Below are positions 24,787 through 61,319 of a stretch of 64,000 bases of DNA, piece by piece. A model generated the notes under the pieces. It saw only the letters and a program-made list of their open reading frames with translations. It did not search any database and had not been told where the DNA came from. The stretch is from a virus, in IMG/VR virus record IMGVR_UViG_3300030419_007436, positions 64,001-128,000 of that record, one strand, 5' to 3'. The position numbers and the translations under genes were made by a program. How positions within the stretch are numbered: position 1 is the stretch's first letter; every line of letters starts with the position of its first letter.

Positions 24787-24987
24787 TTAGTTGTGAGTGC
24801 GTGAAACCAACTCTAATGTGAAGTCTAGACACCAAAATTCTTCACCATCTAGCCAAAGCACTTTTACATCTGCTATTTTTTCTGGTGGTTCGAATTCTGG
24901 GGCATTTTTTATTTCTGTAACGAGGCCAAGTTTTCTGGTGCAATCAAATTGTACTAAATCTCCAATCTGAAATTTATCAGAGGGCAT
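24787..24987 (-). CDS. GDLV-family small beta-barrel protein (stand-alone copy)
   Basis: IGDLVQF...GLV...VLW...LELVSR. Confidence 0.7.
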   Translation of the reverse strand: MPSDKFQIGDLVQFDCTRKLGLVTEIKNAPEFEPPEKIADVKVLWLDGEEFWCLDFTLELVSRTHN

Positions 24988-29255: not shown

Positions 29256-29462
29256 TTATTCCACTGTAATGCAGAATACGTCCACCCCTCGGCCTAAACA
29301 CCAGAACCGGCTCCCATTTGCCCATTGTACGTACAAATCGCGCTCATGTTCTTGGTCTCTTTCATTGTACCAATACCTAGTTTCCAACACAATACCACTG
29401 AGGGGCGCATCCCCATCGAGGATAACCAGATCGCCAATAATAGCAGTGGTACCGTTACGCAT
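29256..29462 (-). CDS. GDLV-family small beta-barrel protein (stand-alone copy)
   Basis: IGDLVIL...GIV...YVQW. Confidence 0.6.
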   Translation of the reverse strand: MRNGTTAIIGDLVILDGDAPLSGIVLETRYWYNERDQEHERDLYVQWANGSRFWCLGRGVDVFCITVE

Positions 29463-32127: not shown

Positions 32128-32289
32128 TTAGGAGGCCGCGCCGATGACCTGCAAGTCGTCCACGTGCTCTGAGAAAATAACATTGTCTGCCCACAACACT
32201 TTGACCCACTTCTTGCCTTTCTTTTCTTTTATTATCCCTGAGAGACTCTTTTCGTCTTCACAGTATTTTACTAAATCGCCAATGTTCAT
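32128..32289 (-). CDS. GDLV-family cassette protein (53 aa)
   Basis: Manual translation MNIGDLVKYC...VKVLW...LQVIGAAS. Confidence 0.7.
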   Translation of the reverse strand: MNIGDLVKYCEDEKSLSGIIKEKKGKKWVKVLWADNVIFSEHVDDLQVIGAAS

Positions 32290-32322
32290 GCAGGCGATTA
32301 TACATTATATCAAATTGTTTTT

Positions 32323-32520
32323 TTAGCCCTTCGAGACTGTTTTGACGTAATCCCGGTGCATCCATTGGCTTCCTCTTCCCATCCACATCACTTGAATGGT
32401 GTACAACCTTTTATCTTGCGTAGACACATCAACAACAATTCCTGTTCTCTGCTTGAATTTCTGGCACCATTGAATTCTCTTTCCTTTGCTGGATAGCTCG
32501 ACTAAATCTCCTACTTTCAT
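32323..32520 (-). CDS. GDLV-family cassette protein
   Basis: MKVGDLVELS...; ATGA overlap with the upstream gene. Confidence 0.75.
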   Translation of the reverse strand: MKVGDLVELSSKGKRIQWCQKFKQRTGIVVDVSTQDKRLYTIQVMWMGRGSQWMHRDYVKTVSKG

Positions 32521-32723
32521 TTTATTACCTTCAACCAGCGCATCAACGAGCCATCGCACAACGATGAGACAGACTCACCAACAAACTGAACCGCAAAGTT
32601 ATTGATTATTTTTCCATCCTCGCGTTTCAGAGGCTTTGGACCTAGATATATCGCAATCCTGTTGTTGATGTCTCGCGTGTGACCATTAACGTAATCGAAT
32701 TTTACTAAATCGCCTATTTTCAT
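32517..32723 (-). CDS. GDLV-family cassette protein
   Basis: MKIGDLVKFD...LKVIK; ATGA overlap. Confidence 0.75.
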   Translation of the reverse strand: MKIGDLVKFDYVNGHTRDINNRIAIYLGPKPLKREDGKIINNFAVQFVGESVSSLCDGSLMRWLKVIK

Positions 32724-33022
32724 TCTTCTGCCTTTATATACGGAATTCCAGCAGGTAGCTCGCCAGAGACAATACCGCCGTGTTTGGCGCAGATTAGCGA
32801 AACTCTCGATGCTGGTACATAACCATACACCGTATTGAGAGGCGCATTTTCGTTTTCTGCCCAAGGCATCAATATTGGCTCATATTGGTTTGGATAGCCT
32901 ACCTCTACTTCTTCGTATCGGTCTGCGTCGTCAACTCGCGGTTGGCAGTATGCGGTGGCATTTGCCTGCACACTCATTATGAACCCATCTTTGCAGACAA
33001 TCTTTTCGTTATGTTTTTTCAT
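32720..33022 (-). CDS. Conserved phage hypothetical protein
   Basis: SVQA..YC.PR...VEVG.P...TVYGYVP...KHGG; ATGA overlaps at both ends. Confidence 0.75.
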   Translation of the reverse strand: MKKHNEKIVCKDGFIMSVQANATAYCQPRVDDADRYEEVEVGYPNQYEPILMPWAENENAPLNTVYGYVPASRVSLICAKHGGIVSGELPAGIPYIKAEE

Positions 33023-33183
33023 ACTGTACTGATCACCCTTACATCTTCATGACTAAGATATGTTGCGTAGTCGGGCGCGTCAGTCCATCGCACTTGCACA
33101 CAGCCATCAGTAGCCCAAACAACTAAGCCACAAGATTTGCGCCATGTAGGGCCGGTCAAAACGACTAAATCACCTACTTGCAT
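33019..33183 (-). CDS. GDLV-family cassette protein (54 aa)
   Basis: Manual translation MQVGDLVVLTG...VRVISTV. Confidence 0.75.
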   Translation of the reverse strand: MQVGDLVVLTGPTWRKSCGLVVWATDGCVQVRWTDAPDYATYLSHEDVRVISTV

Positions 33184-33367
33184 TAATTACCTCCAGCCAC
33201 GCATGACGAAACCAATATTCTTCACATGATCCCGCTGTACGTACCCAATATTGAATTGTGATACCTCGCGAATCTTCCCGCTCTTGCAGCCTAGTGATCA
33301 CTCCAATGCTACCAATTGGTGTTCGCAATTCTTTTCTTATAACTTTTACTAAATCACCGACTTGCAT
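33170..33367 (-). CDS. GDLV-family cassette protein
   Basis: MQVGDLVKVI...LEVINASR; 14 nt overlap with the next gene. Confidence 0.8.
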   Translation of the reverse strand: MQVGDLVKVIRKELRTPIGSIGVITRLQEREDSRGITIQYWVRTAGSCEEYWFRHAWLEVINASR

Positions 33368-33518
33368 TGATTACCTCTACTTTTGTTCGCCATGAGGCGG
33401 CAACAACACCGCTGCGATTGTCTCTGACTATTGGGTCATTATCTTCATCAAACCCAACGACAATACCTGTGCCCACTTTTTTGTGGTAAGAATATTTTAC
33501 TAAATCGCCTACTTTCAC
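33354..33518 (-). CDS. GDLV-family cassette protein (54 aa)
   Basis: Manual translation (GTG) MKVGDLVKYS...VEVINASR. Confidence 0.75.
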   Translation of the reverse strand: MKVGDLVKYSYHKKVGTGIVVGFDEDNDPIVRDNRSGVVAASWRTKVEVINASR

Positions 33519-33521
33519 TGA

Positions 33522-33725
33522 TTACCTCACGACTAGTTTGAGCCACTCATAGCCCTCATATCCTCGCCACCAAGTGTTTTTGTCGCGTCCCATAAGTTGG
33601 AATACACCGCCGCCACCACGTCTGTCGTGGTCATTGCGTAGTACACGATATATGCCGTCATCATAGGCCAGAAATTGTCCTGCTCGAATGTCCTCGCCGT
33701 GCTTTTTGATGATTTTAACTTTCAA
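33522..33725 (-). CDS. Small hypothetical early protein
   Basis: First gene below the promoter at 33759-33787; its 3' end runs into a junction copy. Confidence 0.6.
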   Translation of the reverse strand: MKVKIIKKHGEDIRAGQFLAYDDGIYRVLRNDHDRRGGGGVFQLMGRDKNTWWRGYEGYEWLKLVVR

Positions 33726-33758
33726 GACTAGTTCCCTTTTTCGACTGTTTCTATATAC

Positions 33759-33787
33759 ATTATCTCACACAGAAGGCGTCTTGTCAA
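33759..33787 (-). promoter_or_regulatory. Early promoter TTGACA-N17-GATAAT
   Basis: Same consensus. Confidence 0.8.
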
Positions 33788-33995
33788 GTGTTTTTTTCAC
33801 TTTTACGTGTTTTAACTCTCTTCTGTTGATATAATACGGGCGGGAATTTGGGAAAAACCAGTGTACCTTCAAGAGAGCAATGTGAGTGCCATGGCGACAG
33901 TCGATGACCAAACCTTTTTTACCTTCGAGGCCCTTAAAATGACCACCATGCTTCAAGCCATAAGCTGAAAGCTCAACTAAATCACCTACTTGCAC
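33765..33995 (-). CDS. GDLV-family cassette protein
   Basis: MQVGDLVELS... Confidence 0.75.
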   Translation of the reverse strand: MQVGDLVELSAYGLKHGGHFKGLEGKKGLVIDCRHGTHIALLKVHWFFPNSRPYYINRRELKHVKVKKTLDKTPSV

Positions 33996-34158
33996 TGACT
34001 ACCTCCAACGCTGTCTTGTATACAAAGAAGGGGTGTTCCTTTCCGTTGACATACACGACGAAAGTCGCGGGACGCCTTTCTTCAGTAATTACGCCCGTCT
34101 TGCCTGCGTACTGTGGATAATCTTCTTTATCGAAGAGCACCAAATCACCGACTTGCAT
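33982..34158 (-). CDS. GDLV-family cassette protein
   Basis: MQVGDLVLFD...LEVVSASR; start corrected to 34158. Confidence 0.8.
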   Translation of the reverse strand: MQVGDLVLFDKEDYPQYAGKTGVITEERRPATFVVYVNGKEHPFFVYKTALEVVSASR

Positions 34159-34330
34159 TGATGACCTCCAATTGGTGTTCGCGAAAGTCCACATATGTAT
34201 TTCGGGGCCAATCGCCACCCATAAGCACCTTGTAAAGCACCGTCCATCGCCTAGAATAATCTGCGTGTGTGATGATGCCCGTAGGCTTTCCATCGACAAT
34301 TAATACTTTTACCAAATCACCTACTTGCAC
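34145..34330 (-). CDS. GDLV-family cassette protein; close paralog of 36217..36402
   Basis: MQVGDLVKVLIVDGKPTGIIT...LEVINASR. Confidence 0.8.
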   Translation of the reverse strand: MQVGDLVKVLIVDGKPTGIITHADYSRRWTVLYKVLMGGDWPRNTYVDFREHQLEVINASR

Positions 34331-34571
34331 GTGCTTTTACCACCTTGAAAGTCCTCCGAAGATTATGAATATTTGACCGTGAGTAACCGTAATCGCTGTA
34401 GTCAGGCGGTGTGCCGTTGCTCCATCTGACGAAAACTTTAGCGTGATTATATTCGTTGTATGTCAACTTATAAACAACACCAGTATATTTTTTGTTGTCT
34501 GAGTTTTGAACCAACAAGTCGCCTACCTCTGCCCATCGAGACTTATCCATTGGTACACAAACCCTCTTCAA
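34317..34571 (-). CDS. GDLV-family protein with N-terminal extension
   Basis: EVGDLLVQ...GVV...VFVRW...KARASR. Confidence 0.7.
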   Translation of the reverse strand: MKRVCVPMDKSRWAEVGDLLVQNSDNKKYTGVVYKLTYNEYNHAKVFVRWSNGTPPDYSDYGYSRSNIHNLRRTFKVVKARASR

Positions 34572-34737
34572 TCAAGGTACTAGCAACACGACCATAATGC
34601 CCTTGAAGGCTCCATGCCAATCCACTGTTAATCAACTCCTGAAAGAATTGGATTGTCTCGGCCTCATCCATTTGGCCAGTCTCGTAACGAATAATCTTGT
34701 CAACCATGCTGTTCTCCGAATCGTTTGTTGGTGTCAT
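34543..34737 (-). CDS. Conserved small phage protein
   Basis: IIRYETG...FQELINSGLAWSLQGHYGR. Confidence 0.7.
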   Translation of the reverse strand: MTPTNDSENSMVDKIIRYETGQMDEAETIQFFQELINSGLAWSLQGHYGRVASTLIEEGLCTNG

Positions 34738-34738
34738 T

Positions 34739-34767
34739 ATTATACCACGTGGGATTCAACCTGTCAA
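34739..34767 (-). promoter_or_regulatory. Early promoter TTGACA-N17-TATAAT
   Basis: Perfect sigma70 consensus with TG extension. Confidence 0.8.
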
Positions 34768-35241
34768 GCCTTTTGTGATAAAAACTGACCATGTTGGGTA
34801 AGTGTTCGCCGCGCCAGAAGAAAAGAATTCATCCAGCTTACATTCACGCAAAGCACCATTCTTCAAATTGAGAAAGATAAACCTAAACTTATCTTTCAGC
34901 ACTTCTGCGTTGTGCTTCTCTGCGCCTGTCAAGGTGAATCCCAGTCCAGACCAATTCTCCTCGACAGGCGACTTCCTTTCCCTACCGGCAGTTTTCAGTT
35001 CAAAAAGTGTAATGTTTTCGACTGCTTCTGCCAATTGGTCTGGATTATCAATTGTCTTTGCGTCAGATTCTTTAATCAAGTCAAAGCCTTTCGCTCGTAT
35101 TTCTTTTCCTACTTGTGCGTAGGCTTCGACAAGATTCTTTCTTTGTTGTGGTGTTGGGCGAACAAAGCCGTGTGTACGCATTGTTGTCCATGAGTCAGCC
35201 TCGTTTTGTTTTCCCGTGTTGTAGCTTTTGGCGTTGTTCAT
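34756..35241 (-). CDS. PD-(D/E)xK nuclease-like protein
   Basis: GFDLI...LFELKT; start at the TAATG overlap, 35241. Confidence 0.5.
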   Translation of the reverse strand: MNNAKSYNTGKQNEADSWTTMRTHGFVRPTPQQRKNLVEAYAQVGKEIRAKGFDLIKESDAKTIDNPDQLAEAVENITLFELKTAGRERKSPVEENWSGLGFTLTGAEKHNAEVLKDKFRFIFLNLKNGALRECKLDEFFSSGAANTYPTWSVFITKGLTG

Positions 35242-35732
35242 TATACTGCACTCGCTAGAATCTTGTCCGAATGCCATTTGATTGTGCCGGGGCGACAAGT
35301 GATTGTCTGAATCTTGTTGTTGACAAACACAGTCAACTCGTTTCGGCCAACTGCTGTCACAATGGCATGCTTCTTGTTGACAGTGATTAGACTACCAACA
35401 GGCGGCAAACCATCTTCTGTGATTAAGCCGGGGTCTTGAATCCTGAGAAACGGACGCTTCTGATTCGGAGCATAAAGTACACCATTCTTCTCATCCAGCA
35501 CAAGTTTTGTGTCCTTCGGCTTTCCATTCAAAGAAGAATATTGTTTACCCTCAACAGTCCATTGCTTACCTTTCTTGGTGGCCTTTTCGACTTTGAAAAC
35601 GATTGTGCGATACTTTGGATAAGTGCGATAGGTTTGAAGTTCGCCGTTTGCATCCATAGCTGCCTCTTCACGAGCCTTGCTCCGACCCATTCCAAAACAC
35701 CACTTCTTCATTAGAATATCATTTGCTTGCAT
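35241..35732 (-). CDS. Hypothetical early protein
   Basis: ORF track; AGGAG RBS. Confidence 0.7.
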   Translation of the reverse strand: MQANDILMKKWCFGMGRSKAREEAAMDANGELQTYRTYPKYRTIVFKVEKATKKGKQWTVEGKQYSSLNGKPKDTKLVLDEKNGVLYAPNQKRPFLRIQDPGLITEDGLPPVGSLITVNKKHAIVTAVGRNELTVFVNNKIQTITCRPGTIKWHSDKILASAV

Positions 35733-35741
35733 GGTACTCTC

Positions 35742-35918
35742 CTATGACGTGGGCTTAAGGCATGCTTCAACGAAACGCTGCTTGTTGAAACGAGGATTGG
35801 TTTCAGATAGTTTCTGTGCGAAGCTAACCGCAAGTTCTTGAATAACGCAGCGGTTCATCGGAGATGTGCTGCTGGCTTTGAGTACGTCTGCAATAAGTTG
35901 AAAATCTTTACGAGTCAT
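35742..35918 (-). CDS. Conserved small phage protein (MTRKDF...NPRFN..RF..AC)
   Basis: Manual translation, 58 aa, first gene below the promoter. Confidence 0.7.
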   Translation of the reverse strand: MTRKDFQLIADVLKASSTSPMNRCVIQELAVSFAQKLSETNPRFNKQRFVEACLKPTS

Positions 35919-35949
35919 TTTGAATCCTTTTTTAATTTGTTATGTATGT

Positions 35950-35978
35950 ATTATCTCATGAATTGCGGTGTTTGTCAA
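35950..35978 (-). promoter_or_regulatory. Early promoter TTGACA-N17-GATAAT
   Basis: Same consensus. Confidence 0.8.
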
Positions 35979-35986
35979 GAAGTTTT

Positions 35987-36079
35987 TTACTTTTTTTTAT
36001 CTTTCAACAGTTCTGCTATCACAAAAAGGGCAGTCCAAACAAACAAAACTAACACTGTGATTTTATTGAGTCTGTCCAC
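35987..36079 (-). CDS. 30 aa single-helix membrane peptide
   Basis: GTG start with GGAGGT RBS embedded in the LEVI codons of the upstream cassette. Confidence 0.5.
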   Translation of the reverse strand: MDRLNKITVLVLFVWTALFVIAELLKDKKK

Positions 36080-36230
36080 CAATAACCTCCAAATACTCCG
36101 CACTGAGCCATATTGGTTCAGCATCACCAACCAGTAAGACTTGGGCATTGAAGTGGCCACCTCGCGTGACCAAGCCATACCTGCAAGTATCATGTCTGGT
36201 GGTATATTTTACCAAATCACCGGGCTGCAC
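36063..36230 (-). CDS. GDLV-family cassette protein (55 aa)
   Basis: Manual translation MQPGDLVKYT...LEVIGGQTQ. Confidence 0.75.
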   Translation of the reverse strand: MQPGDLVKYTTRHDTCRYGLVTRGGHFNAQVLLVGDAEPIWLSAEYLEVIGGQTQ

Positions 36231-36402
36231 TGATTAGCTCCAATTGGTGCTCTCGAAAGAAGACCTCTGCATCCCAGCCATAACCTCTGCCCATAAGAAC
36301 TTCGTAAATCACAGTCCATCGTCGAGAATGGTCTACTTTTGTGATGATGCCTGTAGGCTTTCCATCAACAATTAATACTTTTACTAAATCACCGACTTGC
36401 AC
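36217..36402 (-). CDS. GDLV-family cassette protein; close paralog of 34145..34330
   Basis: MQVGDLVKVLIVDGKPTGIIT...LELISAAR. Confidence 0.8.
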   Translation of the reverse strand: MQVGDLVKVLIVDGKPTGIITKVDHSRRWTVIYEVLMGRGYGWDAEVFFREHQLELISAAR

Positions 36403-36556
36403 TTATCACCTTCAAATGTTTCTTTGCAAACAGTTCAACTTTGTTAGTGCCCAGCCATATCACTTCTGCGCTAATAGGAGTATACCAGCCAACAATAATT
36501 GCTGTCGGGCGTTGACCTTCTCCATATGTCCTCTCGACCAGATCACCGACTTGCAT
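36389..36556 (-). CDS. GDLV-family cassette protein
   Basis: MQVGDLVERT...LKVISASR; start corrected to 36556. Confidence 0.8.
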   Translation of the reverse strand: MQVGDLVERTYGEGQRPTAIIVGWYTPISAEVIWLGTNKVELFAKKHLKVISASR

Positions 36557-36557
36557 C

Positions 36558-36941
36558 TTAATAACAAAGGCTCCTTTCCATGTGAATGTCGCCGTAGTGC
36601 AATTCTCCCCTGCTGTCGCAGTCGTCATACTCTTCACCTAGGCGGACAAAGCGCACATGATTGCCCTGCCACTCATTTTCTGGAAGTTCAAACCCTTCAA
36701 TCCCATCACCTTCAGCCTCTTGAATAAATTCATTGATAGCTTGAATCTCTGGATAGCTATCGTACCATTTTATACCTCCCCAAGTAACGAGCAACGTACC
36801 TTCATTGTTATAGTTCTGGTCAAGATGGTCATGATGTTTGAAAATTAATGAGCGTGTCTCTGGCTCTTTCGCCAAGACAGCAAGAAAATGTGGCATGATT
36901 TGTTTACTGATTGCTAACACTACTTCTGAACGATAACCCAT
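36558..36941 (-). CDS. Conserved phage hypothetical protein
   Basis: MGYRSEV...IKWY...FVRLGEE. Confidence 0.75.
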   Translation of the reverse strand: MGYRSEVVLAISKQIMPHFLAVLAKEPETRSLIFKHHDHLDQNYNNEGTLLVTWGGIKWYDSYPEIQAINEFIQEAEGDGIEGFELPENEWQGNHVRFVRLGEEYDDCDSRGELHYGDIHMERSLCY

Positions 36942-37087
36942 TTATTTTCTCCGTTGTTTGTGGGCTAATAAGATTGTTTTCTACACGTGCTGGGGGCGAG
37001 GTCAGCTTCTAGTCCTTCAACTGTGCGTTGTTGGCACGCCCTATGTTCACAATTTCATCTTCATGCTCCTCGACTGTTTCTATAGGT

Positions 37088-37116
37088 ATTATCTCAAATA
37101 TTGGGAGGTTTGTCAA
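37088..37116 (-). promoter_or_regulatory. Early promoter TTGACA-N17-GATAAT
   Basis: Same consensus. Confidence 0.8.
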
Positions 37117-37117
37117 G

Positions 37118-37279
37118 CTATTTCTTTGCTTTTTTTGCTTTTTTTGCTTTTTTTCGCCGTGGTTTTCCCCATGCGCTGATGGCTACATAATCTGGGCCAC
37201 GCTCATCTTTGGGAAGCAGCGTAACGCCATTTTCCTTAATAAAATCATTGATTTGTAGCAATTCTTCTTCTCTCGTCAT
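37118..37279 (-). CDS. Small protein with basic tail
   Basis: MTREEELLQINDFIKENGVT...KKAKKAKKAKK; AAGGAG RBS. Confidence 0.65.
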   Translation of the reverse strand: MTREEELLQINDFIKENGVTLLPKDERGPDYVAISAWGKPRRKKAKKAKKAKK

Positions 37280-37364
37280 TATTTTCTCCTTTTTATCGAC
37301 GATTCCTCGTTCCACACAAACAACACCAATCCCACGACTGGTATCAGTAGACCGAATAATTCCA

Positions 37365-37622
37365 TTAATCTTTTTTCTCGCACGCCATGCAGTGGCAACC
37401 GGGATTGGGACAGTTTTCTTTCATGCTGTCGCGCAACTCTGCTGACCACTCGAATGAATCTTTGAAGTCGTCCCATGTTTCGTCAAAGATGTCCGGTGCA
37501 TGCCGATAATCATCGACAAACTGGGTGATGACGTATTCTTCCAAGTCCTCGCGACTCCAACCGCTAAGAATTTTAGATGCTAGTTCATATCTATTATTAT
37601 CATTGTTGTCAGGATATGCCAT
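37365..37622 (-). CDS. Small hypothetical protein
   Basis: ORF track; coupled to the upstream VWA gene. Confidence 0.65.
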   Translation of the reverse strand: MAYPDNNDNNRYELASKILSGWSREDLEEYVITQFVDDYRHAPDIFDETWDDFKDSFEWSAELRDSMKENCPNPGCHCMACEKKD

Positions 37623-38836
37623 TAGTCTGTCCCCTCAATAGCCAAGACTCGTTCATTAGTTTTGAACCACGGGTGCCGTGCATAATATGCTGTAGTCATC
37701 CACATCCGTTGACACTTAGATGCTTTTGGCTTTGGTGCCATCATGTCAGTCAAGACAATATGCCCATCGAACCCATGCTTGTTCACATATGCAGTAGGAG
37801 CATCAAAGCAAGTTCCACCAGAGAGCACTCGCTCCCATTTTTTGTTCTCGCCTTTCTTCCAGTCGTAGACCTTATCTTCAAACACCTCTGTGTCGAACGG
37901 TACCACGGTAAACGAGGCCAGTTTAGCAAGTTTATTCAACTCGCCAAAGAACGCTGCAAGCATGCTATCGCTCACCGAACCTGATTGGTCAATGCTGATA
38001 GCAATGCGAGCCTGACGTGTTACTTTTTTGCCAGAGTGAATGTAGGCGTAGCGTTTGTTCAGTCGTTTGACCGTGCTGCGCTTAGATGCGCGCCGTGAGG
38101 TTTTGACGAAGTAGCGCAGAACCTTTTTCCAATCTACTTTGGTGGACAGCTTTTCAATAATTTCACGCTTCACCGATGCACTGACGCTGCCCCATCCACT
38201 TCCTTGTTGCGCTTCTTTCGCTGCCTCTTTGATATGCTCTTTGACGCGCTCTTTCGCAATCTCGCTGGTCGTGGTGTCTGTCTCACCCCACTCCTGATGG
38301 CTGTCTAAGCCATTGTCTTCTGGCAGCTTATTGTCATCACCCTCTTCGCCGCCGCCTTGACTCTCGCCGCCTTTGTCTTTTTGTTTTTCTTCTTCTCGCT
38401 TTTGTTTAATAAGCCTCAAATATGCTTCGGCAGACAGGCCCGACTCAAACTCAGCGAACGGACCTTTACCGGGAACACATGCGCTTTCAGGCAACCCACT
38501 GATGTGACTGTTGATTGAAAGGTCTGCCGCAATGTTCCAATCACGAGTCATGGCACCGTCAGGAAGACGGCTTGTCACGTGCTCGAAAATCAAGTGATAA
38601 AACTCGTGGATAAGAACAGCCTTGCGCTCTGCGTCAGTGAGTCCCTCAAAGAAATTGGGGTTATAGAACAACTCGTAGCGAGCCGTATCAGGATTAACAC
38701 GCACACCAGCAGTGGGTACGGCAGTGCTTACGCATTTTGTAATACGACGCGAAAGGGATGCAAAGAACGGCTCATCCATGAGTAGGCGAGCCGTGTGCAT
38801 GTTCAAATCAAAACTTTTGTTTTTCGTGTTTTCCAT
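37622..38836 (-). CDS. Metallopeptidase-like (HExxH) plus VWA-like domain protein (DUF2201 type)
   Basis: LIHEFYHL, WNIAADLSIN, SIDQSGSVS, GGTCF, LTD. Confidence 0.85.
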   Translation of the reverse strand: MENTKNKSFDLNMHTARLLMDEPFFASLSRRITKCVSTAVPTAGVRVNPDTARYELFYNPNFFEGLTDAERKAVLIHEFYHLIFEHVTSRLPDGAMTRDWNIAADLSINSHISGLPESACVPGKGPFAEFESGLSAEAYLRLIKQKREEEKQKDKGGESQGGGEEGDDNKLPEDNGLDSHQEWGETDTTTSEIAKERVKEHIKEAAKEAQQGSGWGSVSASVKREIIEKLSTKVDWKKVLRYFVKTSRRASKRSTVKRLNKRYAYIHSGKKVTRQARIAISIDQSGSVSDSMLAAFFGELNKLAKLASFTVVPFDTEVFEDKVYDWKKGENKKWERVLSGGTCFDAPTAYVNKHGFDGHIVLTDMMAPKPKASKCQRMWMTTAYYARHPWFKTNERVLAIEGTD

Positions 38837-38842
38837 GCTATA

Positions 38843-38871
38843 ATTATCTCACACGTGAACGAATTTGTCAA
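38843..38871 (-). promoter_or_regulatory. Early promoter TTGACA-N17-GATAAT
   Basis: Same consensus. Confidence 0.8.
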
Positions 38872-38883
38872 GAAAAAAGTGAA

Positions 38884-38910
38884 GCTCCACCCATTTTTTT
38901 TGGGTGGAGC
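38884..38910 (-). terminator. Intrinsic terminator hairpin after the AAA ATPase gene
   Basis: Perfect 10 bp stem GCTCCACCCA/TGGGTGGAGC followed by a T-rich tract. Confidence 0.75.
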
Positions 38911-38918
38911 GTGTTTTA

Positions 38919-40001
38919 TTAGTCTGTCTGGTTGCCAGTCAGAATTTCAACGATGTAAGAAGAAACCTTTGTGCCGTTGTTGGCAGTGGCACTATGAAGC
39001 CCAGTGGTGTTCTCCAGTACATCGCCTTTGCCCACCAAGGTCCACAGCTTCATGAACGCCTCGGACGGAAGGGTCACTGAATAGTTCGCCAAGTTTTGAA
39101 CTTGTTCCTTTGGAAGTACCGTGGCAAATGTGTCCTTTGCTTCCATCTTCTCGATGAGAGCACAGTGCTCATTCAAGTCAAAGTTGGTGGTAGCGTCCAC
39201 ATTACCTTCAACCAATACCTCTTCGACCGTCACGACTCGCTCATAATTCTTTACGAAGTCGTTGAAAGCCACCGCAGCCTCAAAACCAACAAAGGCTGTA
39301 GAAAGGTTGAAAAGAAGAGGCGAAGCCTCTTCCACTGCTTCTGCCTGCACCAAACAATCATTCAGGCGTTTCCATGAGCGACGAGAGGGATAAACCTTGT
39401 TTGGCTCGAAATCATCTTTGTGGTCAAGATGGTTGCGGTTCTGATTAACAAAATCCCAGACAATGCCATGCACGTTAGTTTTTGCCCAATCAAGCCAGTC
39501 TTCAACAGAAGGCTCAACATCGAAAACCGTGTAACGGTCAAGCTCCGCTGGGTCCATTTCATTGACCTGATATTGGTCCCCATGCTCTCCACCGTTCACA
39601 GCAGCAATAACAATAGTTTCCTCGTGCAGAACCCAGCCAGCAATTTTTCGGCTGTCGGTCAACTCAAAGATGCCCTGCCGTACCTCAGTTGTCGCACGGT
39701 CAACTTCATCCAAGAAGAGGACCACAGGCTCAGTACAAGCCTGAATTAGCCAAGAGAAAGGCCGGAAAACAGAAGCCTGTTCGCCATTGACTTCAACCAA
39801 CTCAGGCGAAGGCATACCTAACAAATCACCCTCGGTCATCTGAGATGCACGACGCTCCACGACAGGCAGACCCATGCTCTCGGCTACTTGATAAACAACC
39901 TCGGACTTGCCGACGCCGTGGCGACCACGGAGTAGGATGGGTTTGCGAACTGCGATGACGTGGGGTGCACAGGAAAGAAATGTTTTGAAGTCGATTGCCA
40001 T
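38919..40001 (-). CDS. MoxR-like AAA+ ATPase
   Basis: GRHGVGKS Walker A, LFLDEVDR Walker B, AAVN, MDPAELDR. Confidence 0.85.
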   Translation of the reverse strand: MAIDFKTFLSCAPHVIAVRKPILLRGRHGVGKSEVVYQVAESMGLPVVERRASQMTEGDLLGMPSPELVEVNGEQASVFRPFSWLIQACTEPVVLFLDEVDRATTEVRQGIFELTDSRKIAGWVLHEETIVIAAVNGGEHGDQYQVNEMDPAELDRYTVFDVEPSVEDWLDWAKTNVHGIVWDFVNQNRNHLDHKDDFEPNKVYPSRRSWKRLNDCLVQAEAVEEASPLLFNLSTAFVGFEAAVAFNDFVKNYERVVTVEEVLVEGNVDATTNFDLNEHCALIEKMEAKDTFATVLPKEQVQNLANYSVTLPSEAFMKLWTLVGKGDVLENTTGLHSATANNGTKVSSYIVEILTGNQTD

Positions 40002-40039
40002 GTTTTAAGCTCCTTTGTTTTCCGACCTTTCTGTATATA

Positions 40040-40068
40040 ATTATCTCACAAGGAAAGGAAATTGTCAA
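40040..40068 (-). promoter_or_regulatory. Early promoter TTGACA-N17-GATAAT
   Basis: Same consensus. Confidence 0.8.
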
Positions 40069-40094
40069 GTGTTTTTTTGTTTTTTTTTGTTTTT

Positions 40095-40730
40095 TTAGTC
40101 CAAATAATAGCGAGAAACATACCAGTGACCATTAGCCCTCTGAAGGTCATCAATTTCACTTAGGGTGCCTTTGTCACTGCTATCGAACCAGCCCTCTGGA
40201 ATTCCAAAATCAACCGCACTAGAAGAAACTGGCCCAACCACTGAGAGAATATCGTTTGCAGAGGTACAGTATCCACCGTCACCTGTTTTCATCATTCGAT
40301 AAAGAATAAAGTCGCGGTGGCCTCGATTTGGGAACTGTTCCAACAGAAACCCGTTGTCTACTCGAATCTTTTGCCACTGGATCCGTTCCACCATCGCTGT
40401 CGAATCGCCGTGATTCCAATGGGTTACAGTAAAAAGTGCGCCCGGTGCAAGGCCCTGTTCTTGAAGATAATTATAGACTTGTGCACGCATGCGTATATTC
40501 TTTATCATTAGCCCTTCGCGGTCTTGTTTCAAAGCTGGGCATGTCCTGCGAGTGTGGCCGGTTTCCTCACAATAACCACATTTTCGACCTCGACTCTTGC
40601 GCTGTTGGTCACGGCGTGCTTCATAGCTGTCAGGGTTTCTCTGAATGTACTCCTTTCTGTCGGGGCATCCGTTTTTGTTGTGTCCCGTCTTGTAACACCA
40701 ACTGCAAGTAACTGTATTGTTCCAACTCAA
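40095..40730 (-). CDS. Double CCHC zinc-knuckle protein
   Basis: CSWCYKTGHNKNGC and CGYCEETGHTRRTC. Confidence 0.75.
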   Translation of the reverse strand: MSWNNTVTCSWCYKTGHNKNGCPDRKEYIQRNPDSYEARRDQQRKSRGRKCGYCEETGHTRRTCPALKQDREGLMIKNIRMRAQVYNYLQEQGLAPGALFTVTHWNHGDSTAMVERIQWQKIRVDNGFLLEQFPNRGHRDFILYRMMKTGDGGYCTSANDILSVVGPVSSSAVDFGIPEGWFDSSDKGTLSEIDDLQRANGHWYVSRYYLD

Positions 40731-40760
40731 TGTTTTCTCCTTTTCATTAAGTCCATGTGT

Positions 40761-40789
40761 ATTATCTCAAATATTTAGTGATTTGTCAA
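40761..40789 (-). promoter_or_regulatory. Early promoter TTGACA-N17-GATAAT
   Basis: Same consensus. Confidence 0.8.
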
Positions 40790-40795
40790 GAAGTT

Positions 40796-41092
40796 TTATG
40801 CGCCAATGTGCGAAGTGTCAGCGGTCCAGTCCACTTTTTTGACTGGCTCGCTCTCATGCAACTGTGTGGGTTCAATGCTGAAAAACTCTGTTTCACCACT
40901 GATTTCGGTCCATGCTTGCCAAAGTTCAACATCGGTCAAATCGTTGCAACTATTATCACGCCAATCTTCTAAAGTTTCGCGCATGACACTAATGCACCAC
41001 TTTTTTGCACCTTCTCTTGTGGTATGCGCTGTGGTGTCCAGACCATGCTTGTGATCGTGCATTGCAAGAAAAATTGTTTTTGATTGTGGCAT
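40796..41092 (-). CDS. Hypothetical early protein
   Basis: Start MPQSKTIF with GGAG RBS. Confidence 0.65.
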   Translation of the reverse strand: MPQSKTIFLAMHDHKHGLDTTAHTTREGAKKWCISVMRETLEDWRDNSCNDLTDVELWQAWTEISGETEFFSIEPTQLHESEPVKKVDWTADTSHIGA

Positions 41093-41093
41093 A

Positions 41094-41219
41094 TTATTTA
41101 CACTCCAACACGTCGTATTTACCAGTGAAAATGTTTTTGTCAATGACGGCATCGAGATTGTGTTTTTCGATATAATTCACGGCGTCTGTTACGAAAAGAA
41201 ATGATGCTAGTGTTTTCAT
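41094..41219 (-). CDS. Small hypothetical early protein (41 aa)
   Basis: Manual translation; AAGGAG RBS below the promoter. Confidence 0.6.
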   Translation of the reverse strand: MKTLASFLFVTDAVNYIEKHNLDAVIDKNIFTGKYDVLECK

Positions 41220-41249
41220 TTTGGCTCCTTTGCCATCGTTTCTATAAGT

Positions 41250-41278
41250 ATTATCTCAAATTTTAAGGGAATTGTCAA
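41250..41278 (-). promoter_or_regulatory. Early promoter TTGACA-N17-GATAAT
   Basis: Same consensus. Confidence 0.8.
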
Positions 41279-41298
41279 GAAGTTTTTTCACTTTTTTG

Positions 41299-41958
41299 CT
41301 AAAAAGGCACGTCGCTGTAAGTCTTTGTTTTCCGTTTCTTTTTAGAATTGGGCTTACATTTTTTGATTTGACGTTCTTCAAAGACAAGAGGCATCGCGTC
41401 CCCATATGGCAAAACCTTATACTGCTTGCCGCCTTTCGCAGCCGAAACCACCTCGCTCAGTATTTCAAGCACCAAACAGGGTGTACCATCCAGCCGACGA
41501 TTGGCGTATTCTAGCGCAGGTCCGCGGAGTACAACAGTCGAACCAACGGCGTAGAGAGGAGTCGCATGGAAAGTCTCCAGCACCTTTACGGCGTACTTGT
41601 TTTCACACATTTTTTTGTACGCTTGGCGAGTAGGAACAAATTCAGGATTTTCCAGCACTTTCATGGCCAAGCCAGTGAAATAGCCAGCATTTTTGTAATA
41701 GTGCGCGACAACGAGTGCCGACTCTCTGTATTGAGATTTGTAAAGTTGTGTCCAAGATTTAGCATCTTCAATAGCCTCTGGTGTGCATTTCACTTCGGAC
41801 TTAGAAAAAATGTCAAGCTGCTTTTGAGACAAAGAGCCGCGGCGCGAAACCTGTTCTTGGATAGACTCCAAAAAACCTTTTTCCCAGTCGCTCAAAAGCG
41901 AACACTCAGCGTCTGTGTCTATGACATTTTGAATGCGAGCTAAAAGTTGTTCTTTCAA
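41299..41958 (-). CDS. Hypothetical early protein
   Basis: 219 aa; LSDWEKGFLESI...LSQKQ. Confidence 0.75.
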   Translation of the reverse strand: MKEQLLARIQNVIDTDAECSLLSDWEKGFLESIQEQVSRRGSLSQKQLDIFSKSEVKCTPEAIEDAKSWTQLYKSQYRESALVVAHYYKNAGYFTGLAMKVLENPEFVPTRQAYKKMCENKYAVKVLETFHATPLYAVGSTVVLRGPALEYANRRLDGTPCLVLEILSEVVSAAKGGKQYKVLPYGDAMPLVFEERQIKKCKPNSKKKRKTKTYSDVPF

Positions 41959-41987
41959 TGTGACGTTTCTCCATCGTGTTATAAGTA

Positions 41988-42016
41988 ATTATCCCACACA
42001 GTAAAGAAAAAGTCAA
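41988..42016 (-). promoter_or_regulatory. Early promoter variant TTGACT-N17-GATAAT
   Basis: One mismatch in -35. Confidence 0.7.
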
Positions 42017-42042
42017 GAGAAAAATGAAAAAAAATGAAAAAA

Positions 42043-42231
42043 TTATGCCGGGGAGATAACCTCAATAAATTCTCTACCCATTGGTGCTCTGTATCCTGTC
42101 AGTGGGCCGTTCAAGGATACCAGTGTCACGCAGTTTGGAAGCTCCGTTCCGCAGCTATGGGCGGTGAGCATCGCTATGATATAGACCCCTTTCCTTACGG
42201 GAAGTACCGTCACCAAATCACCGACTTGCAC
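42043..42231 (-). CDS. GDLV-family cassette protein
   Basis: MQVGDLVTVL...IEVISPA. Confidence 0.75.
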   Translation of the reverse strand: MQVGDLVTVLPVRKGVYIIAMLTAHSCGTELPNCVTLVSLNGPLTGYRAPMGREFIEVISPA

Positions 42232-42397
42232 TGATTACCTCCAAGTTGTCGCGATGATACCAGTACGGCGCTTTATCGCGCTCAAGGGGAAATACGACTC
42301 CTATGAACGCACCCACATCAATTACAATTCCCATACCCTTCTTTTTCCACTGTGGGCCAAGATTCGCTCCATACCTCACTAAATCACCGACTTGCAC
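42218..42397 (-). CDS. GDLV-family cassette protein (59 aa)
   Basis: Manual translation MQVGDLVRYG...LEVISASR. Confidence 0.8.
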   Translation of the reverse strand: MQVGDLVRYGANLGPQWKKKGMGIVIDVGAFIGVVFPLERDKAPYWYHRDNLEVISASR

Positions 42398-42557
42398 TGA
42401 TTAGCTCCAAATTGCGCCGCTGAAACCACATGCTGTAGTCGGCACCGTTAAGCAGTGCGCGGATAGGGCCAATCGGGCGATTGTCCACTTCAGTTACAAT
42501 TCCGTAATAAGCGCCACCATTTCCCCCAACATATTTAACTAAATCACCGACTTCCAT
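42384..42557 (-). CDS. GDLV-family cassette protein
   Basis: MEVGDLVKYV...LELISASR; start corrected to 42557. Confidence 0.8.
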   Translation of the reverse strand: MEVGDLVKYVGGNGGAYYGIVTEVDNRPIGPIRALLNGADYSMWFQRRNLELISASR

Positions 42558-42619
42558 TGATTGCCTCAAAAATAAAAATATTCTCACGTGTGTGTCTACA
42601 AAAATAAAAATAAATAAAA

Positions 42620-42735
42620 TATAGGCTGCGTGCGCTGTCTTCACCGTCGCTCGCTAGACTCCTTTCCACTGGCTCTTGGCCTATCCTTCAGGAGAGTCAT
42701 TGAAGGTCTGTGTTATCATGTAAACACAGCCTATA
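42620..42735 (-). ncRNA. Candidate structured RNA or leader element (116 nt)
   Basis: GC-rich island in AT-rich intergenic DNA; 9 bp terminal inverted repeat plus two internal hairpins. Confidence 0.35.
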
Positions 42736-42861: not shown

Positions 42862-43068
42862 TTAAACTCTTGAAACTAATTTTAATTCGGACGCGGGAGT
42901 CCAATCGACGCCATAGTGACCATCTTGGCTGCTGAACCAGCATACCTTCACTTGACCTAGTTTCCTATTATCATCCTTTTCTATTATAACCCCCAACCAC
43001 AAGGGCATTTGTGCCGAAGTATTTTTTGAATAGGTGGGCACCCATGAAACAATATCTCCTAACTCCAT
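42862..43068 (-). CDS. GDLV-family protein
   Basis: MELGDIVSW...GVI...VKVCW...LKLVSRV. Confidence 0.7.
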   Translation of the reverse strand: MELGDIVSWVPTYSKNTSAQMPLWLGVIIEKDDNRKLGQVKVCWFSSQDGHYGVDWTPASELKLVSRV

Positions 43069-47095: not shown

Positions 47096-47151
47096 GAACG
47101 CCTCCTTCTATAAACTTAATTATAACATGTTTAAACTATTTGTCAAGAAAA

Positions 47152-47442: not shown

Positions 47443-49017
47443 CTAGTTAGCACATTCGATAATGGCATGATTAGTTGTGATTAAAGTGGACGCAACAGAC
47501 GTTGCATTTTGTAGCGCACATCTTGTAACTTTTACTGGGTCAATAATCCCACTTTCCACCAAATTTACCAGCTTCCCGGTATTAAAATCAATTCCCTTGT
47601 TTTCTTTTGACTTTTCCACCAAAGATAATAAAATATCAGGAGAATAGCCAGCGTTCTTTGCCATCTGTCTGAAAGGTTCTTTTACTGCCTCGCAAACTAT
47701 CTGAACTCCCAGCTTTTGATCGTCATTATCTGTCGCGACTTTTAAATTTTTAGTAGCGCGTATAAGAGCCACACCTCCTCCTGAAACAACGCCCTCAAGC
47801 TGCGCGGCAGTTACCGCTTCGAGAGCATCTTCAATGCGGTGTTTTTTTTCTATCATTTCTACCTCGCTGGAGGCTCCCACTCGGATTATTGCAATACCGC
47901 TAGCAAGTCGAGTTATTCTTTCTTGTGCTTTCTCACATTCTTGCAAACTTTCCGTTTCTTTTATCTGAGCTTTTAGCAAATCAATTCTTTTTTCCACCTC
48001 ATCGATGTCCCCGTTTCCACCTACTACAGTTGTAAGATTTTTAGAACTTTCAATTGATTTGGCGCGGCCAAAATGATTGAGTTTTATATCTTTTAATCTC
48101 AAATTGTTTTGTCTTGTAATGAAAGTCGCACCGACAGAAAGCGCCAAATCATTAAGAATGCTTCGCCTTTCCTCTCCATATCTAGGCGCCTTAATCCCGG
48201 CGACGCGAAGAGTACCACGCATTGCATTCATAATTAACGCAGCAAGAGCCTGGCCTTCTATATTTTCAGCCACGATAATAAAAGGGCGACTCTCGCGCGC
48301 CGCTATTTCTAGCGCAGGCATCATGTCCTCTACATTGTCAATGCTCTCGTCTGTGACCATAATGAGGGGATCCTCGTAGCGCACGACACCTCTCTTTTCG
48401 TCAGTTACAAAGGCGCTAGCTAAATATCCAGAATCAAAGCGAAATCCCTCCACCAAGTCTAGACTAGTTTCAATTGATCGTGCCTCTTCGATTGTGATCG
48501 CTCCATCCTTGCCTGCAAGATCCACAGCTTTAGCAATTAAATTACCGATAAGGCTGTCATTGTTAGCTGATATTTTTGCAATGTGGGCTATTTCCTCCTG
48601 AGACATTATGGGTTGTGCCAAAGACTTTAAATTCTCTACAATCTGCTTCAAAGCCTTATCCATCCCTCTTTTTAGTTCTACTGGGGGCGCCCCGGCCATC
48701 AAATATTTTTGAGCCTGTGTTAAAATTGCGCGTGTTAAAACGGTAGATGTAGTGGTGCCGTCACCGGCCTCACTGTTAGTCCTTGATGCAGCCTGCTTGA
48801 TAATTTCTGCACCTACATTTTCAAAAGGATCCTTTAGTTCCACAAATTTAGCTACCGTTACTCCGTCTTTTGTAATTATTGGATTTTGCCCAGGTTGGTG
48901 TAGGATAACATTTCTTCCGCGCGGTCCAAGTGTAGAAGCCACGTTATCAGCCAGCGTAGCTGCTCCATTTAGAATTTTTTGTTGAAGATTTGTTCCCGAT
49001 TCATACTGTCGCGACAT
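47443..49017 (-). CDS. groL: Chaperonin GroEL (no GGM tail)
   Basis: TLGPRGRNV, ITKDGVTVA, AGDGTTT, GGGVAL, GIIDPVKV. Confidence 0.97.
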   Translation of the reverse strand: MSRQYESGTNLQQKILNGAATLADNVASTLGPRGRNVILHQPGQNPIITKDGVTVAKFVELKDPFENVGAEIIKQAASRTNSEAGDGTTTSTVLTRAILTQAQKYLMAGAPPVELKRGMDKALKQIVENLKSLAQPIMSQEEIAHIAKISANNDSLIGNLIAKAVDLAGKDGAITIEEARSIETSLDLVEGFRFDSGYLASAFVTDEKRGVVRYEDPLIMVTDESIDNVEDMMPALEIAARESRPFIIVAENIEGQALAALIMNAMRGTLRVAGIKAPRYGEERRSILNDLALSVGATFITRQNNLRLKDIKLNHFGRAKSIESSKNLTTVVGGNGDIDEVEKRIDLLKAQIKETESLQECEKAQERITRLASGIAIIRVGASSEVEMIEKKHRIEDALEAVTAAQLEGVVSGGGVALIRATKNLKVATDNDDQKLGVQIVCEAVKEPFRQMAKNAGYSPDILLSLVEKSKENKGIDFNTGKLVNLVESGIIDPVKVTRCALQNATSVASTLITTNHAIIECAN

Positions 49018-60800: not shown

Positions 60801-61319
60801 ACGGAGGAGTTTGTAGTCTACCCTTGGAAAACGATAGAAGCTTTCTTTTGAAAAAGATTTAGAAACCATCTTAAAAATATTGTTTAGCCCCGTTTGATTT
60901 TGGGCCAAAAGAATTAGATGGCGTCGGCGGTTCAATATGTTTTTAACAGCAGTCTTCGACGAACCTTCATCCTCAATCGTCGTAGCTGACCTAGAATCGT
61001 CCAGCGTGCGTTTAGCCTTTTTGTCTTCTTTTGCTTTTTCGTATTCTTGTTTCCACTCTGAAAGGCTCGGAAGAAAGTAGGCCTCCACTCCAAATATGGG
61101 CTTAAAATTCTTGCCTTCTTCTTGCATTTTTTTGGCGTGTAGCACCTGATATGCCATACCATTCATATTACCATGGTCGGTTAAAGCAAGCGCATCGCAT
61201 CCATTATTATAGGCGAAATCCATGTGTTCCTGTGGGTATCCCAATCCATCAAAAGGGCTTCCAACTCCACTGTGTGCATGTAAACCAACGAAAGGTATTT
61301 TACTCATTATCTTCTCCAA
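57885..61319 (-). CDS. dnaE: DNA polymerase III alpha subunit (family C)
   Basis: PHP domain LHAHS/LTDHG; GRGSAAGS, YPDIDYD, HAGG, KFDILGL, FNKSHA. Confidence 0.97.
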   Translation of the reverse strand: MEKIMSKIPFVGLHAHSGVGSPFDGLGYPQEHMDFAYNNGCDALALTDHGNMNGMAYQVLHAKKMQEEGKNFKPIFGVEAYFLPSLSEWKQEYEKAKEDKKAKRTLDDSRSATTIEDEGSSKTAVKNILNRRRHLILLAQNQTGLNNIFKMVSKSFSKESFYRFPRVDYKLLRKYNEGVIAASACLGGVYAGDYWENKDKGPSQIRDAMSKTTTKMMDIFGDRWYGELQWNNIPEQHELNKYIIQVSKKYGFGLISTADSHYPSQNAWKDRELYKRLGWLGKGSTPSWLSSELPIGVEDIGYELYPKNGDQMWESYKTYSKECGAKYDDDLVMKSITETHRIAHERIESFLPDNTVRLPDFVVPAGFTASQALSQLCFEGLRALSLHTAEEYTDRLKEELQIIDERGFSKYFLTMNAVVDKANSVQLTGPGRGSAAGSLVAYVLGITQIDPIKYNLLFSRFMRSDAKDYPDIDYDVSDPMILKEMLIDEWGGDKVVPISNFNTLQLRSLVKDISKFYEIPFTEVNAVTSRMLKEATPLAKKKHGIKSGVYTPTFEEVMEFSESLKNFLNKHPHVASHINVLYGQMRSVSRHAGGVVIGEDLNKYMPLINSGGVTQTPWSEGQNVRHLEPMGFIKFDILGLSTLKMIEGAVGHILKRYHGVKSPTFRDIKNYYDKHLHPEKIDLNDQKVYENIFHKGKWAGIFQFTENGAQKFCRKALPRNIIDLAAITSIYRPGPLGADVDKLYVRAKKNPEDILYEHDYVKSLTEETYGFLIFQEQIALLAHKLGKDLSLDEGNKLRKLLTKKGTGSAAKQKNQIKLKFVAGCVEKGLSKNWAEKMWKKFEYFSGYGFNKSHAVSYSIISYQCAWLFNYYPAEWMAAFLDKEPETRKERAINLAKKFKFKIKPVDVNNSGVVWDIDADNKTLIQPLTSLKGLGEKAIEQIINNRPFKSAEEFLFNDNILYSKLNKKALDVLVRSGALSSLVDDRFTGLKHFWSAAVVERPKNLKKFEENIDLFKPEGDFNDEEKINNLVSLTGIFPMDLVLDDSVMNRLDYYKVPPIGEWDNDLGVAWFIPREIIPKKTKNGKTYWIVKVIDNTSTVTAIKCWGVNPERDEIYINHPYMSKLEYDDQWGFSTRSIKYNFRMLA

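Follow-up and report, generated by a model that had tools for sequence, protein, structure and literature searches.

The stretch of DNA analyzed here (hereafter the window, 64,000 nucleotides) covers bases 64001-128000 of the 190,629-base IMG/VR record IMGVR_UViG_3300030419_007436, a viral genome that is complete by CheckV. Nearly all long open reading frames (ORFs) of the window are carried by its minus strand, and this strand also carries, between positions 32128 and 43068, 17 clear paralogous genes for proteins of 53-76 amino acids (aa), which we found by scanning with a peptide motif and then with a hidden Markov model (HMM) built from the matches of that motif. Thirteen of the 17 paralogs are arranged in four chains (3+4+3+3 genes), whose nine consecutive gene pairs overlap by exactly 14 nucleotides (nt) at a junction of about 33 nt. 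The initial annotation of this DNA had described the repeat as four sub-arrays (33164-33528, 33975-34335, 36207-36560 and 42210-42567) with a spacing of 151-184 bp, read in two frames and giving nine gene pairs the same overlap; the two scans showed this layout, its coordinates and both reading frames to be correct. We herein describe the junction, the genes that it joins, which we call cassettes, and the rearrangement of these cassettes in related viral loci.

Results

Four chains of overlapping genes

The start codons at the nine overlaps are located at 42397, 42231, 36402, 36230, 34330, 34158, 33995, 33367 and 33183. When up to three mismatches were allowed, the 33-nt motif of the junction matched eight times in the window, against 0.00 matches expected from shuffles, and a scan of the entire genome placed all eight matches inside the window. 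The family members given below all lie on the minus strand.

Chain 1 begins with a 57-aa gene (42384..42557, ending in ...LELISASR), which is followed by a 59-aa gene (42218..42397) and by the chain-terminal 62-aa gene (42043..42231, with the tail ...EVISPA that lacks ASR); the latter two start with GTG, each 14 nt inside the gene before it. Chain 2 follows a 127-aa gene (36558-36941) and consists of genes for 55 aa (36389..36556), 61 aa (36217..36402, an in-genome paralog of 34145-34330 with 72% aa identity) and 55 aa (36063..36230, chain-terminal, tail ...LEVIGGQTQ). The first gene of chain 3 (34317..34553, HMM score 51.6 bits) is divergent, carries an N-terminal extension, ends in ...KARASR and has an uncertain start (ATG at 34553 or TTG at 34571); it is followed by genes for 61 aa (34145..34330), 58 aa (33982..34158) and 76 aa (33765..33995), the last of which is chain-terminal and overlaps the next sigma70 promoter with its 3' end. 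Chain 4 comprises a 54-aa gene with a GTG start (33354..33518, cluster c3), a 65-aa gene whose protein we folded with AlphaFold2 (33170..33367), and a chain-terminal 54-aa gene (33019..33183, tail ...VRVISTV). Directly upstream of chain 4 lies a 67-aa gene (33522-33725, minus strand) that ends in ...KLVVR and shows a weak EF-P KOW-like Pfam match (E 3.6e-4, below the cut-off); judging by its sequence, it is probably a distant relative of the family that was missed by the HMM.

Four further members are not chained: a stand-alone gene for 68 aa (42862..43068, MELGDIV...LKLVSRV, HMM score 61 bits), a 68-aa gene (32517..32723) that shares a 4-nt overlap, not the junction, with the next member, and genes for 65 aa (32323..32520) and 53 aa (32128..32289). 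Weaker isolated members were found at 24787-24972 (HMM E 3e-7) and 29256-29444 (E 0.07) of the window, and at 180885-181121 of the whole 190.6-kb record, outside the window (E 0.006). A list of longest ORFs over-extends six of the members, which appear there as 32323..32559, 32517..32864, 33982..34299, 34317..34571, 36389..36637 and 42384..42644. Gene callers mis-start or miss such overlapped 55-aa genes, and therefore the family is under-annotated.

Dual coding of the junction

On the coding strand the upstream frame of the junction reads TTG GAG GTA ATC A(A/G)T GCA AGT CGG TGA, while the downstream frame, one base later, reads (A/G)TG CAA GTC GGT GAT TT. An example is the junction at 42378..42410 (minus strand), where L-E-L/V-I-S-A-S-R-stop lies over the Shine-Dalgarno sequence and GTG-CAA-GTC-GGT-GAT-TT. 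The tail (N/S)-(A/E)-S-R-TGA is thus an out-of-frame reading of the M-(Q/K)-V-G-D codons of the next gene, and Asn or Ser in this tail reports an ATG or a GTG start, respectively. The upstream stop TGA is supplied by the G-D codons of the next gene and needs GGT as the Gly codon; the L-E-V codons at the upstream end of the junction spell GGAGG, six bases before the next start. The dual coding described in the initial annotation, with a Shine-Dalgarno sequence in L-E-V-I and a TGA within the next G-D codons, is therefore borne out.

In the AlphaFold2 model of the protein encoded by 33170..33367 the first strand spans L6-V9 and the last one L58-N62, and therefore the last strand holds the ribosome site, whereas the residues just before the first strand hold the stop. 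Of the terminal strand that had been read into the whole upstream end, the L-E-V-I part stands; the ASR tail is not a strand but a by-product of the overlap, and it is for this reason that chain-terminal members lack it (...VISTV, ...EVIGGQTQ, ...EVISPA). About 33 nt thus hold both terminal strands as well as the ribosome site, start and stop. Because these elements share so short a stretch, the junction is almost invariant, while the interiors of the cassettes differ almost completely.

The nine junctions of the window have the geometry of a translational-coupling architecture, with the downstream start inside the upstream gene and the ribosome site within the upstream coding sequence. Genes of one chain may therefore be translated by coupling, i.e., by termination and re-initiation, and the higher share of GTG starts in chains (see below) fits this possibility. 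We found neither a hairpin nor unusual pairing at the junction (the unpaired probability was 0.42, as in shuffled controls, 0.42), and the junction is not palindromic; hence the view of the initial annotation that no attC structure is present holds. Likewise, the ribosome sites at the junctions are not sequestered relative to shuffles, so coupling by hairpin melting is not indicated.

Cassettes change places between related phages

Sixty-seven related viral loci were fetched with the MoxR-like ATPase of the window as an anchor (ATPase identity 49-98%). The family HMM detected about 300 members in these loci, always on the coding strand, and the same 14-nt overlap joins 92 of the approximately 110 adjacent member pairs of the window and the 67 loci. 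At 55% identity, 313 well-delimited members fall into 220 clusters, and one and the same cluster occupies different chains and positions in different phages; for instance, relatives of the first gene of chain 1 (cluster c6) have other neighbours in L010 and L026. Among ortholog pairs in which both members have a chained neighbour, 27 have neighbours of different clusters and 9 share theirs, the latter mostly from near-identical genomes.

The window's own cassettes take part in such rearrangements. Cassette 33354..33518 shares 83-87% aa identity with copies in L010 and L015 and 60% with that in L024, and in each comparison the homology runs from the ribosome site or the start to the next junction, the flanks being unrelated. 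Cassette 34145..34330 matches a cassette of L026 from the start codon to the next junction at 95% aa identity and a synonymous divergence (dS) of 0.14, although the ATPases of the two phages are only 68% identical; the L026 counterpart sits behind a promoter and not behind another cassette. On these sequence figures the match is a recent transfer. A copy of cassette 33170..33367 with 85% identity occurs in four Tara contigs, with other neighbours. One of the Tara contigs, L076, carries the 127-aa gene of the window (98.5% nt identity), then a 33367-type cassette (87%) and then a 33995-type cassette (83%), so that the 33367-type cassette stands where the window has the gene starting at 36556; the shared start motif is the only place where the aligned blocks overlap, and it is there that the switch points lie.

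Changes of whole units are also seen over short distances. Loci L032 and L033 were obtained from separate metagenomes and share about 98% nt identity; what sets them apart is two indels of one whole cassette each (148 and 145 nt), both bounded by the direct repeat (A/G)TGAA(A/G)GTCGGTGATTT. In L013 (14614-15194, plus strand) two cassette copies with 99% identity surround a different cassette (A=B=A), and their identity extends from the ATG to the next start motif, which marks a very recent duplication within the genome. Moreover, among homology blocks of 85% identity or more, 17% of the ends map no farther than 25 nt from a family start codon, a zone that makes up 1.5% of the sequence, and block ends are thus enriched about 11-fold at the junction. 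As alternative exchange points we considered the promoter repeats of the region (described below); block ends there are at background level (2% vs 1.7%, in a crude test, as only 27 loci have that promoter type), and this candidate was rejected.

These observations are hardly compatible with static tandem paralogs, that is, with an ancient duplication after which relatives differ only by the divergence of orthologs in a fixed order. Such a history would agree with the deep divergence of most cassettes (220 clusters, dS often above 1) and with the synonymous freedom within the junction reported below, but it accounts neither for unit-precise indels between the nearly identical L032 and L033, nor for a 99% identical in-genome copy at a non-adjacent slot in L013. 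It is equally at odds with the same cassette standing, at 85-95% identity, beside unrelated neighbours in phages whose ATPases are 68-86% identical, and with the different neighbours in 27 of the 36 comparable cases. We consequently regard this explanation as extremely unlikely.

As all relatives are metagenome contigs, the cassette orders might instead be chimeric joins made by assemblers at the repeat of about 33 nt. Indeed, the short-k contigs of public marine runs are interrupted at the junction, where their depth reaches 200-400 compared with about 15 in the adjacent sequence, and their many loose ends agree poorly with one another. However, the repeat is much shorter than a read and is spanned by reads, and the same orders recur in independent samples: the gene order of L076 is found again in L077 and L078, from other samples, and its beginning in the short L079 (521 bp), which makes chimeras unlikely in this case, and further recurrences are L035/L036/L064, L056/L057 and L044/L045. 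In addition, L032 and L033 agree everywhere but at the two indels. An assembly artefact therefore seems very unlikely to us. The junction-to-junction joints within the short contigs are a separate matter: they rest on only 21-31 nt on the shorter side, those that go back have sides of 21-35 nt and are ambiguous, and since many phages share the repeat, we rejected all of them as evidence of excision, circles or variants.

Hence, the comparison of loci shows whole genes deleted, inserted, duplicated and exchanged between phages, with the edges of these changes, as read from the aligned sequences, in the junction. This agrees with the proposal of the initial annotation that genes could be excised, duplicated and reordered there, both in relatives and with the window's own cassettes. 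The junction being constant, every product of such an exchange keeps its frame, ribosome site, start and stop.

Conservation of the junction

Between the window and its closest relatives the core genes are 65-75% identical in DNA, while junction matches reach 90-100%. To judge this conservation we profiled 83 non-redundant junctions from within chains, position by position. In L-E-V the third base of the V codon (position -5) is free, with an information content of 0.12 bits, and so are the third bases of L (+17) and V (+20) after the stop. In 63 of 66 chained genes the upstream E is encoded by GAG, against the genome's own preference for GAA (69%), and this use of GAG reflects the ribosome-site constraint; GGT is used in 98% of chained junctions because of the stop constraint.

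Non-chained members were divided by the presence or absence of an overlapping upstream frame. Where an overlapping ORF of another kind is present, 69 of 86 such ORFs end at the same TGA and the codon bias stays. Where no upstream frame is present, the biases relax: GGT (Gly) drops from 98% in chains to 55% (genome background 32%), GTC (Val) from 69% to 28% (background 14%), the GTG start from 54% to 10% in these genes next to a promoter, and CAA as the second codon from 43% to 7%. Consistently, in L010 the junction of the chain-terminal copy of the 33518-type cassette has degenerated into AT-rich sequence leading into the next promoter. When chain-internal genes were compared with chain-terminal ones, the choice between GAG and GAA did not discriminate between them (95% vs 88% GAG); many of the 'terminal' genes precede an overlapping gene of another kind. 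Therefore, dual coding and the ribosome site account for the conservation of the junction, save for a small residual bias, which may be a legacy of a former in-chain position or a sign of weak selection at the DNA level.

These results bear on the idea, put forward in the initial annotation, of a dedicated shuffling system, in which the junction would be an evolved recombination site acted on by a specific, still unrecognised enzyme in the manner of integron attC and IntI. The enrichment of breakpoints at the junction and not at the equally repeated promoter motifs would suit such a system, as would GTC and GGT frequencies above background even in the absence of dual coding and the identity of the junction between phages with much more diverged core genes. 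On the other hand, the synonymous sites that escape dual coding vary freely, those that are biased relax without the overlap, the terminal junction decays once no gene comes after it, and coding, ribosome-site and stop constraints suffice to explain the conservation; nor does the junction show any hairpin or unusual pairing. The genome also offers no candidate enzyme among those searched for: a tyrosine integrase (PF00589) has no match in the whole 190.6-kb record, the controls being positive, and RecT, ERF and reverse transcriptase (PF00078) were not found in the genome either. The statement of the initial annotation that no recombinase is present in the window thus holds for tyrosine integrases; the genome does encode a general recombinase, namely a RecA/UvsX-like gene outside the window, at 137923-138738 (minus strand) of the record (PF00154, 125 bits, in a 371-aa frame), and no other of the recombination proteins searched for was detected. 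Given this, a dedicated system appears improbable. The same annotation had held that a fixed cassette order in relatives, together with synonymous positions no more conserved than dual coding predicts, would point to old tandem paralogs; we found the synonymous positions to behave in this way, whereas the order is clearly not fixed.

Fold and breadth of the family

The AlphaFold2 model of 33170..33367 (pLDDT 93.5, pTM 0.78) contains five strands (residues 6-9, 21-32, 35-44, 50-53 and 58-62), and the predicted fold is a five-strand SH3-like barrel of the KOW/Tudor type. Its best matches among solved structures are PetP, chromo-barrel, PWWP, KOW and SH3 domains (TM 0.65-0.82, Foldseek E about 0.01), and the best PDB sequence matches of the family profile are Rv2302, uL24, eL21, the KOW domains of NusG/Spt5, and PsaE (E 0.006 or weaker). 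The family has no functional residues in common with these domains, so that the likeness is confined to the fold. Many uncharacterised phage mini-proteins in BFVD match the fold, and its neighbours in the Atlas are unnamed viral clusters. Conservation is confined to M1, G4, D5, L6 and V7, a Gly preceding strand 2, a Trp of strand 3 and the terminal L-E-V-I; the remaining positions vary, loop lengths included.

Six members tested against Pfam gave no match at or above the cut-off, and in PHROGs the members have one weak match only, of unknown function. A profile search of 5.8 billion proteins returned 2277 matches at E <=0.001, largely from ENA, JGI and Tara metagenomes; none of the 120 homologs listed out of these 2277 carries a Pfam domain or a name. 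Two double-length metagenome proteins of 116 aa (P0001 and P0006) have top scores against the family profile (80 and 59 bits), and may represent either mis-called genes or an in-frame fusion of two cassettes. The proteins are under purifying selection, with a median ratio of non-synonymous to synonymous substitutions (dN/dS) of 0.18 over 43 ortholog pairs, calculated without the first 8 and last 9 codons, i.e., the dual-coded ends.

Promoters and genomic setting

Between 32048 and 42016 the coding strand carries ten near-consensus sigma70 promoters (TTGACA, 17 nt, TG-n-GATAAT), all within 11.5 kb. Their hexamer pairs (minus strand) are located at 42016-41988, 41278-41250, 40789-40761, 40068-40040, 38871-38843, 37116-37088 (chain 2 operon, TTGACA-17-TG-n-GATAAT), 35978-35950, 34767-34739 (chain 3 operon, 12/12 consensus), 33787-33759 (operon of the 67-aa KOW-like gene and chain 4) and 32076-32048, so that chains 2, 3 and 4 each stand one gene behind such a promoter. 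Most of these promoter repeats have no paired hairpin beside them. Similar promoter sites occur near 47132 and 31789. The promoters form a second dispersed repeat family, each followed by a leader of about 25 nt with a ribosome site, and are 77-88% identical in relatives. From its sequence, the region looks like an early, plastic accessory region read by the host polymerase.

The public runs that contain this stretch are marine or seawater metagenomes. Cultured relatives were found neither by megablast of the region nor by tblastn of a family member against 50,697 phage records, and for the MoxR-like ATPase no cultured relative exceeds 35% identity. The window further encodes a DnaE-type Pol III alpha polymerase (57885-61319) and a GroEL-type chaperonin (47443-49017). 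The MoxR-like AAA ATPase (38919-40001, minus strand) adjoins a VWA/DUF2201 metallopeptidase-like protein (37622-38836, minus strand); this pair (37622-40001, minus strand) is kept in 67 of 67 relatives and anchors the plastic region, and its two genes are separated by a perfect GC-rich hairpin of 10 bp (38884-38910), which has runs of T on either strand. Close by, a 211-aa protein (40095-40730, minus strand) contains two CCHC-type zinc knuckles (Pfam zf-C2H2_10, 29.8 bits), a domain unusual in a phage early region, and elsewhere in the window a 708-aa protein (14204-16330, minus strand) carries repeated MopE-type putative metal-binding motifs (PF11617, 70 bits). Upstream of chain 1 lies a GC-richer stretch (42620-42735) with a terminator-like stem on the plus strand only (42685-42706); an Rfam search of the whole window, this stretch included, returned no family.

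Discussion

The arrays described here are most likely tandem paralogs that are shuffled by ordinary homology-driven recombination or slippage at constant sequence. We are fairly confident of a more specific version of this view, namely that paralogous early genes for SH3-like mini-barrels are chained by a fixed overlap, and that the junction is a translation joint which doubles as a homology patch for ordinary recombination. Kept constant by the demands of translation and of the protein, the junction would serve as a portable patch of 17-33 nt, and exchange would proceed by general homologous recombination, for which the RecA/UvsX-like gene may provide, or by replication slippage, rather than by a site-specific enzyme.

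Several points weigh against this view. The short contigs of four public marine runs reveal no event within the population of this genome itself; they mix variants with other phages that carry the repeat. The data as a whole fit recombination, slippage and single-strand annealing alike. Coupling and early expression are deduced from sequence alone, and with a Foldseek E of about 0.01 the matches of the fold are generic. Additionally, GTC (28% vs 14%) and GGT (55% vs 32%) stay somewhat raised even in promoter-proximal genes.

As a working guess, we suppose that the proteins act as small binders early in infection, as a repertoire directed at host takeover or counter-defence, on the grounds only of their position, size, diversity and conservation within each type. 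That members are individually conserved yet reassorted between phages is what would be expected of early host-interaction or counter-defence factors. One may speculate further, with a good deal of doubt, that the junction propagates itself as a 'plug' whose uniformity is maintained by second-order selection or gene conversion, and that the phage population shares a combinatorial library of thousands of SH3-like binders, each with a different takeover or defence target. If true, the arrays would be the viral counterpart of a cassette-based repertoire, without the need of a dedicated recombinase.

In any case, the locus offers a base-by-base example of a phage lineage that adds, drops, copies and trades whole genes with frame, ribosome site, start and stop intact, in which the same 33 nt held constant by folding and translation also supply the homology for exchange. 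It makes a clean case in which the shuffling of modules at conserved gene borders can be tested, a notion for which there is little direct evidence outside the T4 PeSLs, and it brings to light a large unnamed family of phage mini-proteins, with more than 2000 members in marine metagenomes, up to 17-20 per genome, and no Pfam entry.

A full-text literature search returned no description of the barrel family or of the junction, although absence there is no proof of novelty. The nearest published system is the PeSL cassettes of T4-type phages, in which an intergenic early promoter and a terminator stem-loop stand between small early genes (Arbiol et al., 2010, PMC2839356; Comeau et al., 2014, PMC4122927), and in which PeSL copies take part in homologous exchange between related phages and in the formation of mini-circles (PMC2839356; PMC4122927). 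Both systems place a short repeat between small early genes of a plastic region and show insertion, deletion and replacement of whole genes among related phages, with the edges of these changes in the repeat, as we found here; strong sigma70-type early promoters abound in both regions, and the PeSL genes are non-essential. Unlike the PeSLs, however, the junction is coding on both sides and has neither promoter hexamers nor a stem, its units are paralogs of one protein family, and block ends are enriched at the junction, not at the promoter repeats. Besides, the phage studied here has a DnaE-type polymerase and so is not of the T4 type.

Integron arrays are similar only in outcome, in that short genes are gained, lost and reordered cassette by cassette. 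Integron cassettes are mostly promoterless and read from an upstream promoter; in the same way the chains may be read from the consensus sigma70 promoters that precede the operons of chains 2, 3 and 4. In integrons, imperfect inverted repeats (attC) that fold as a hairpin mark each cassette boundary, and the tyrosine recombinase IntI is encoded beside the array. No attC hairpin and no IntI-type tyrosine recombinase were found here; instead, the cassettes are mutually homologous, their boundaries lie in overlapping coding sequence, and exchange seems to be driven by homology rather than by site-specific action. The arrays differ also from the targets of diversity-generating retroelements, as a reverse transcriptase is missing and the cassettes differ throughout, not only at adenine-templated sites. 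Poxvirus gene 'accordions', reportedly described by Elde and colleagues in 2012 for the tandem amplification of K3L, share with our arrays a change of copy number by recombination between tandem units followed by divergence, for which the 99% duplicate in L013 is an example. Accordions, however, amplify one gene transiently under selection, whereas here long-diverged, individually conserved proteins are mixed between genomes.

Finally, conserved 'linker' sequences at the boundaries of lambdoid modules are said to have been proposed as exchange sites by Susskind and Botstein in 1978, and in later HK97/HK620 comparisons. These linkers, like the junction, are short conserved stretches at gene borders, proposed to act as sites of homologous exchange. 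The modules that they separate are unrelated functional genes and the evidence for them is sparse, while in the arrays described here one junction recurs nine times in one genome and, among relatives, in more than 90 gene pairs, with an exact reading-frame geometry.

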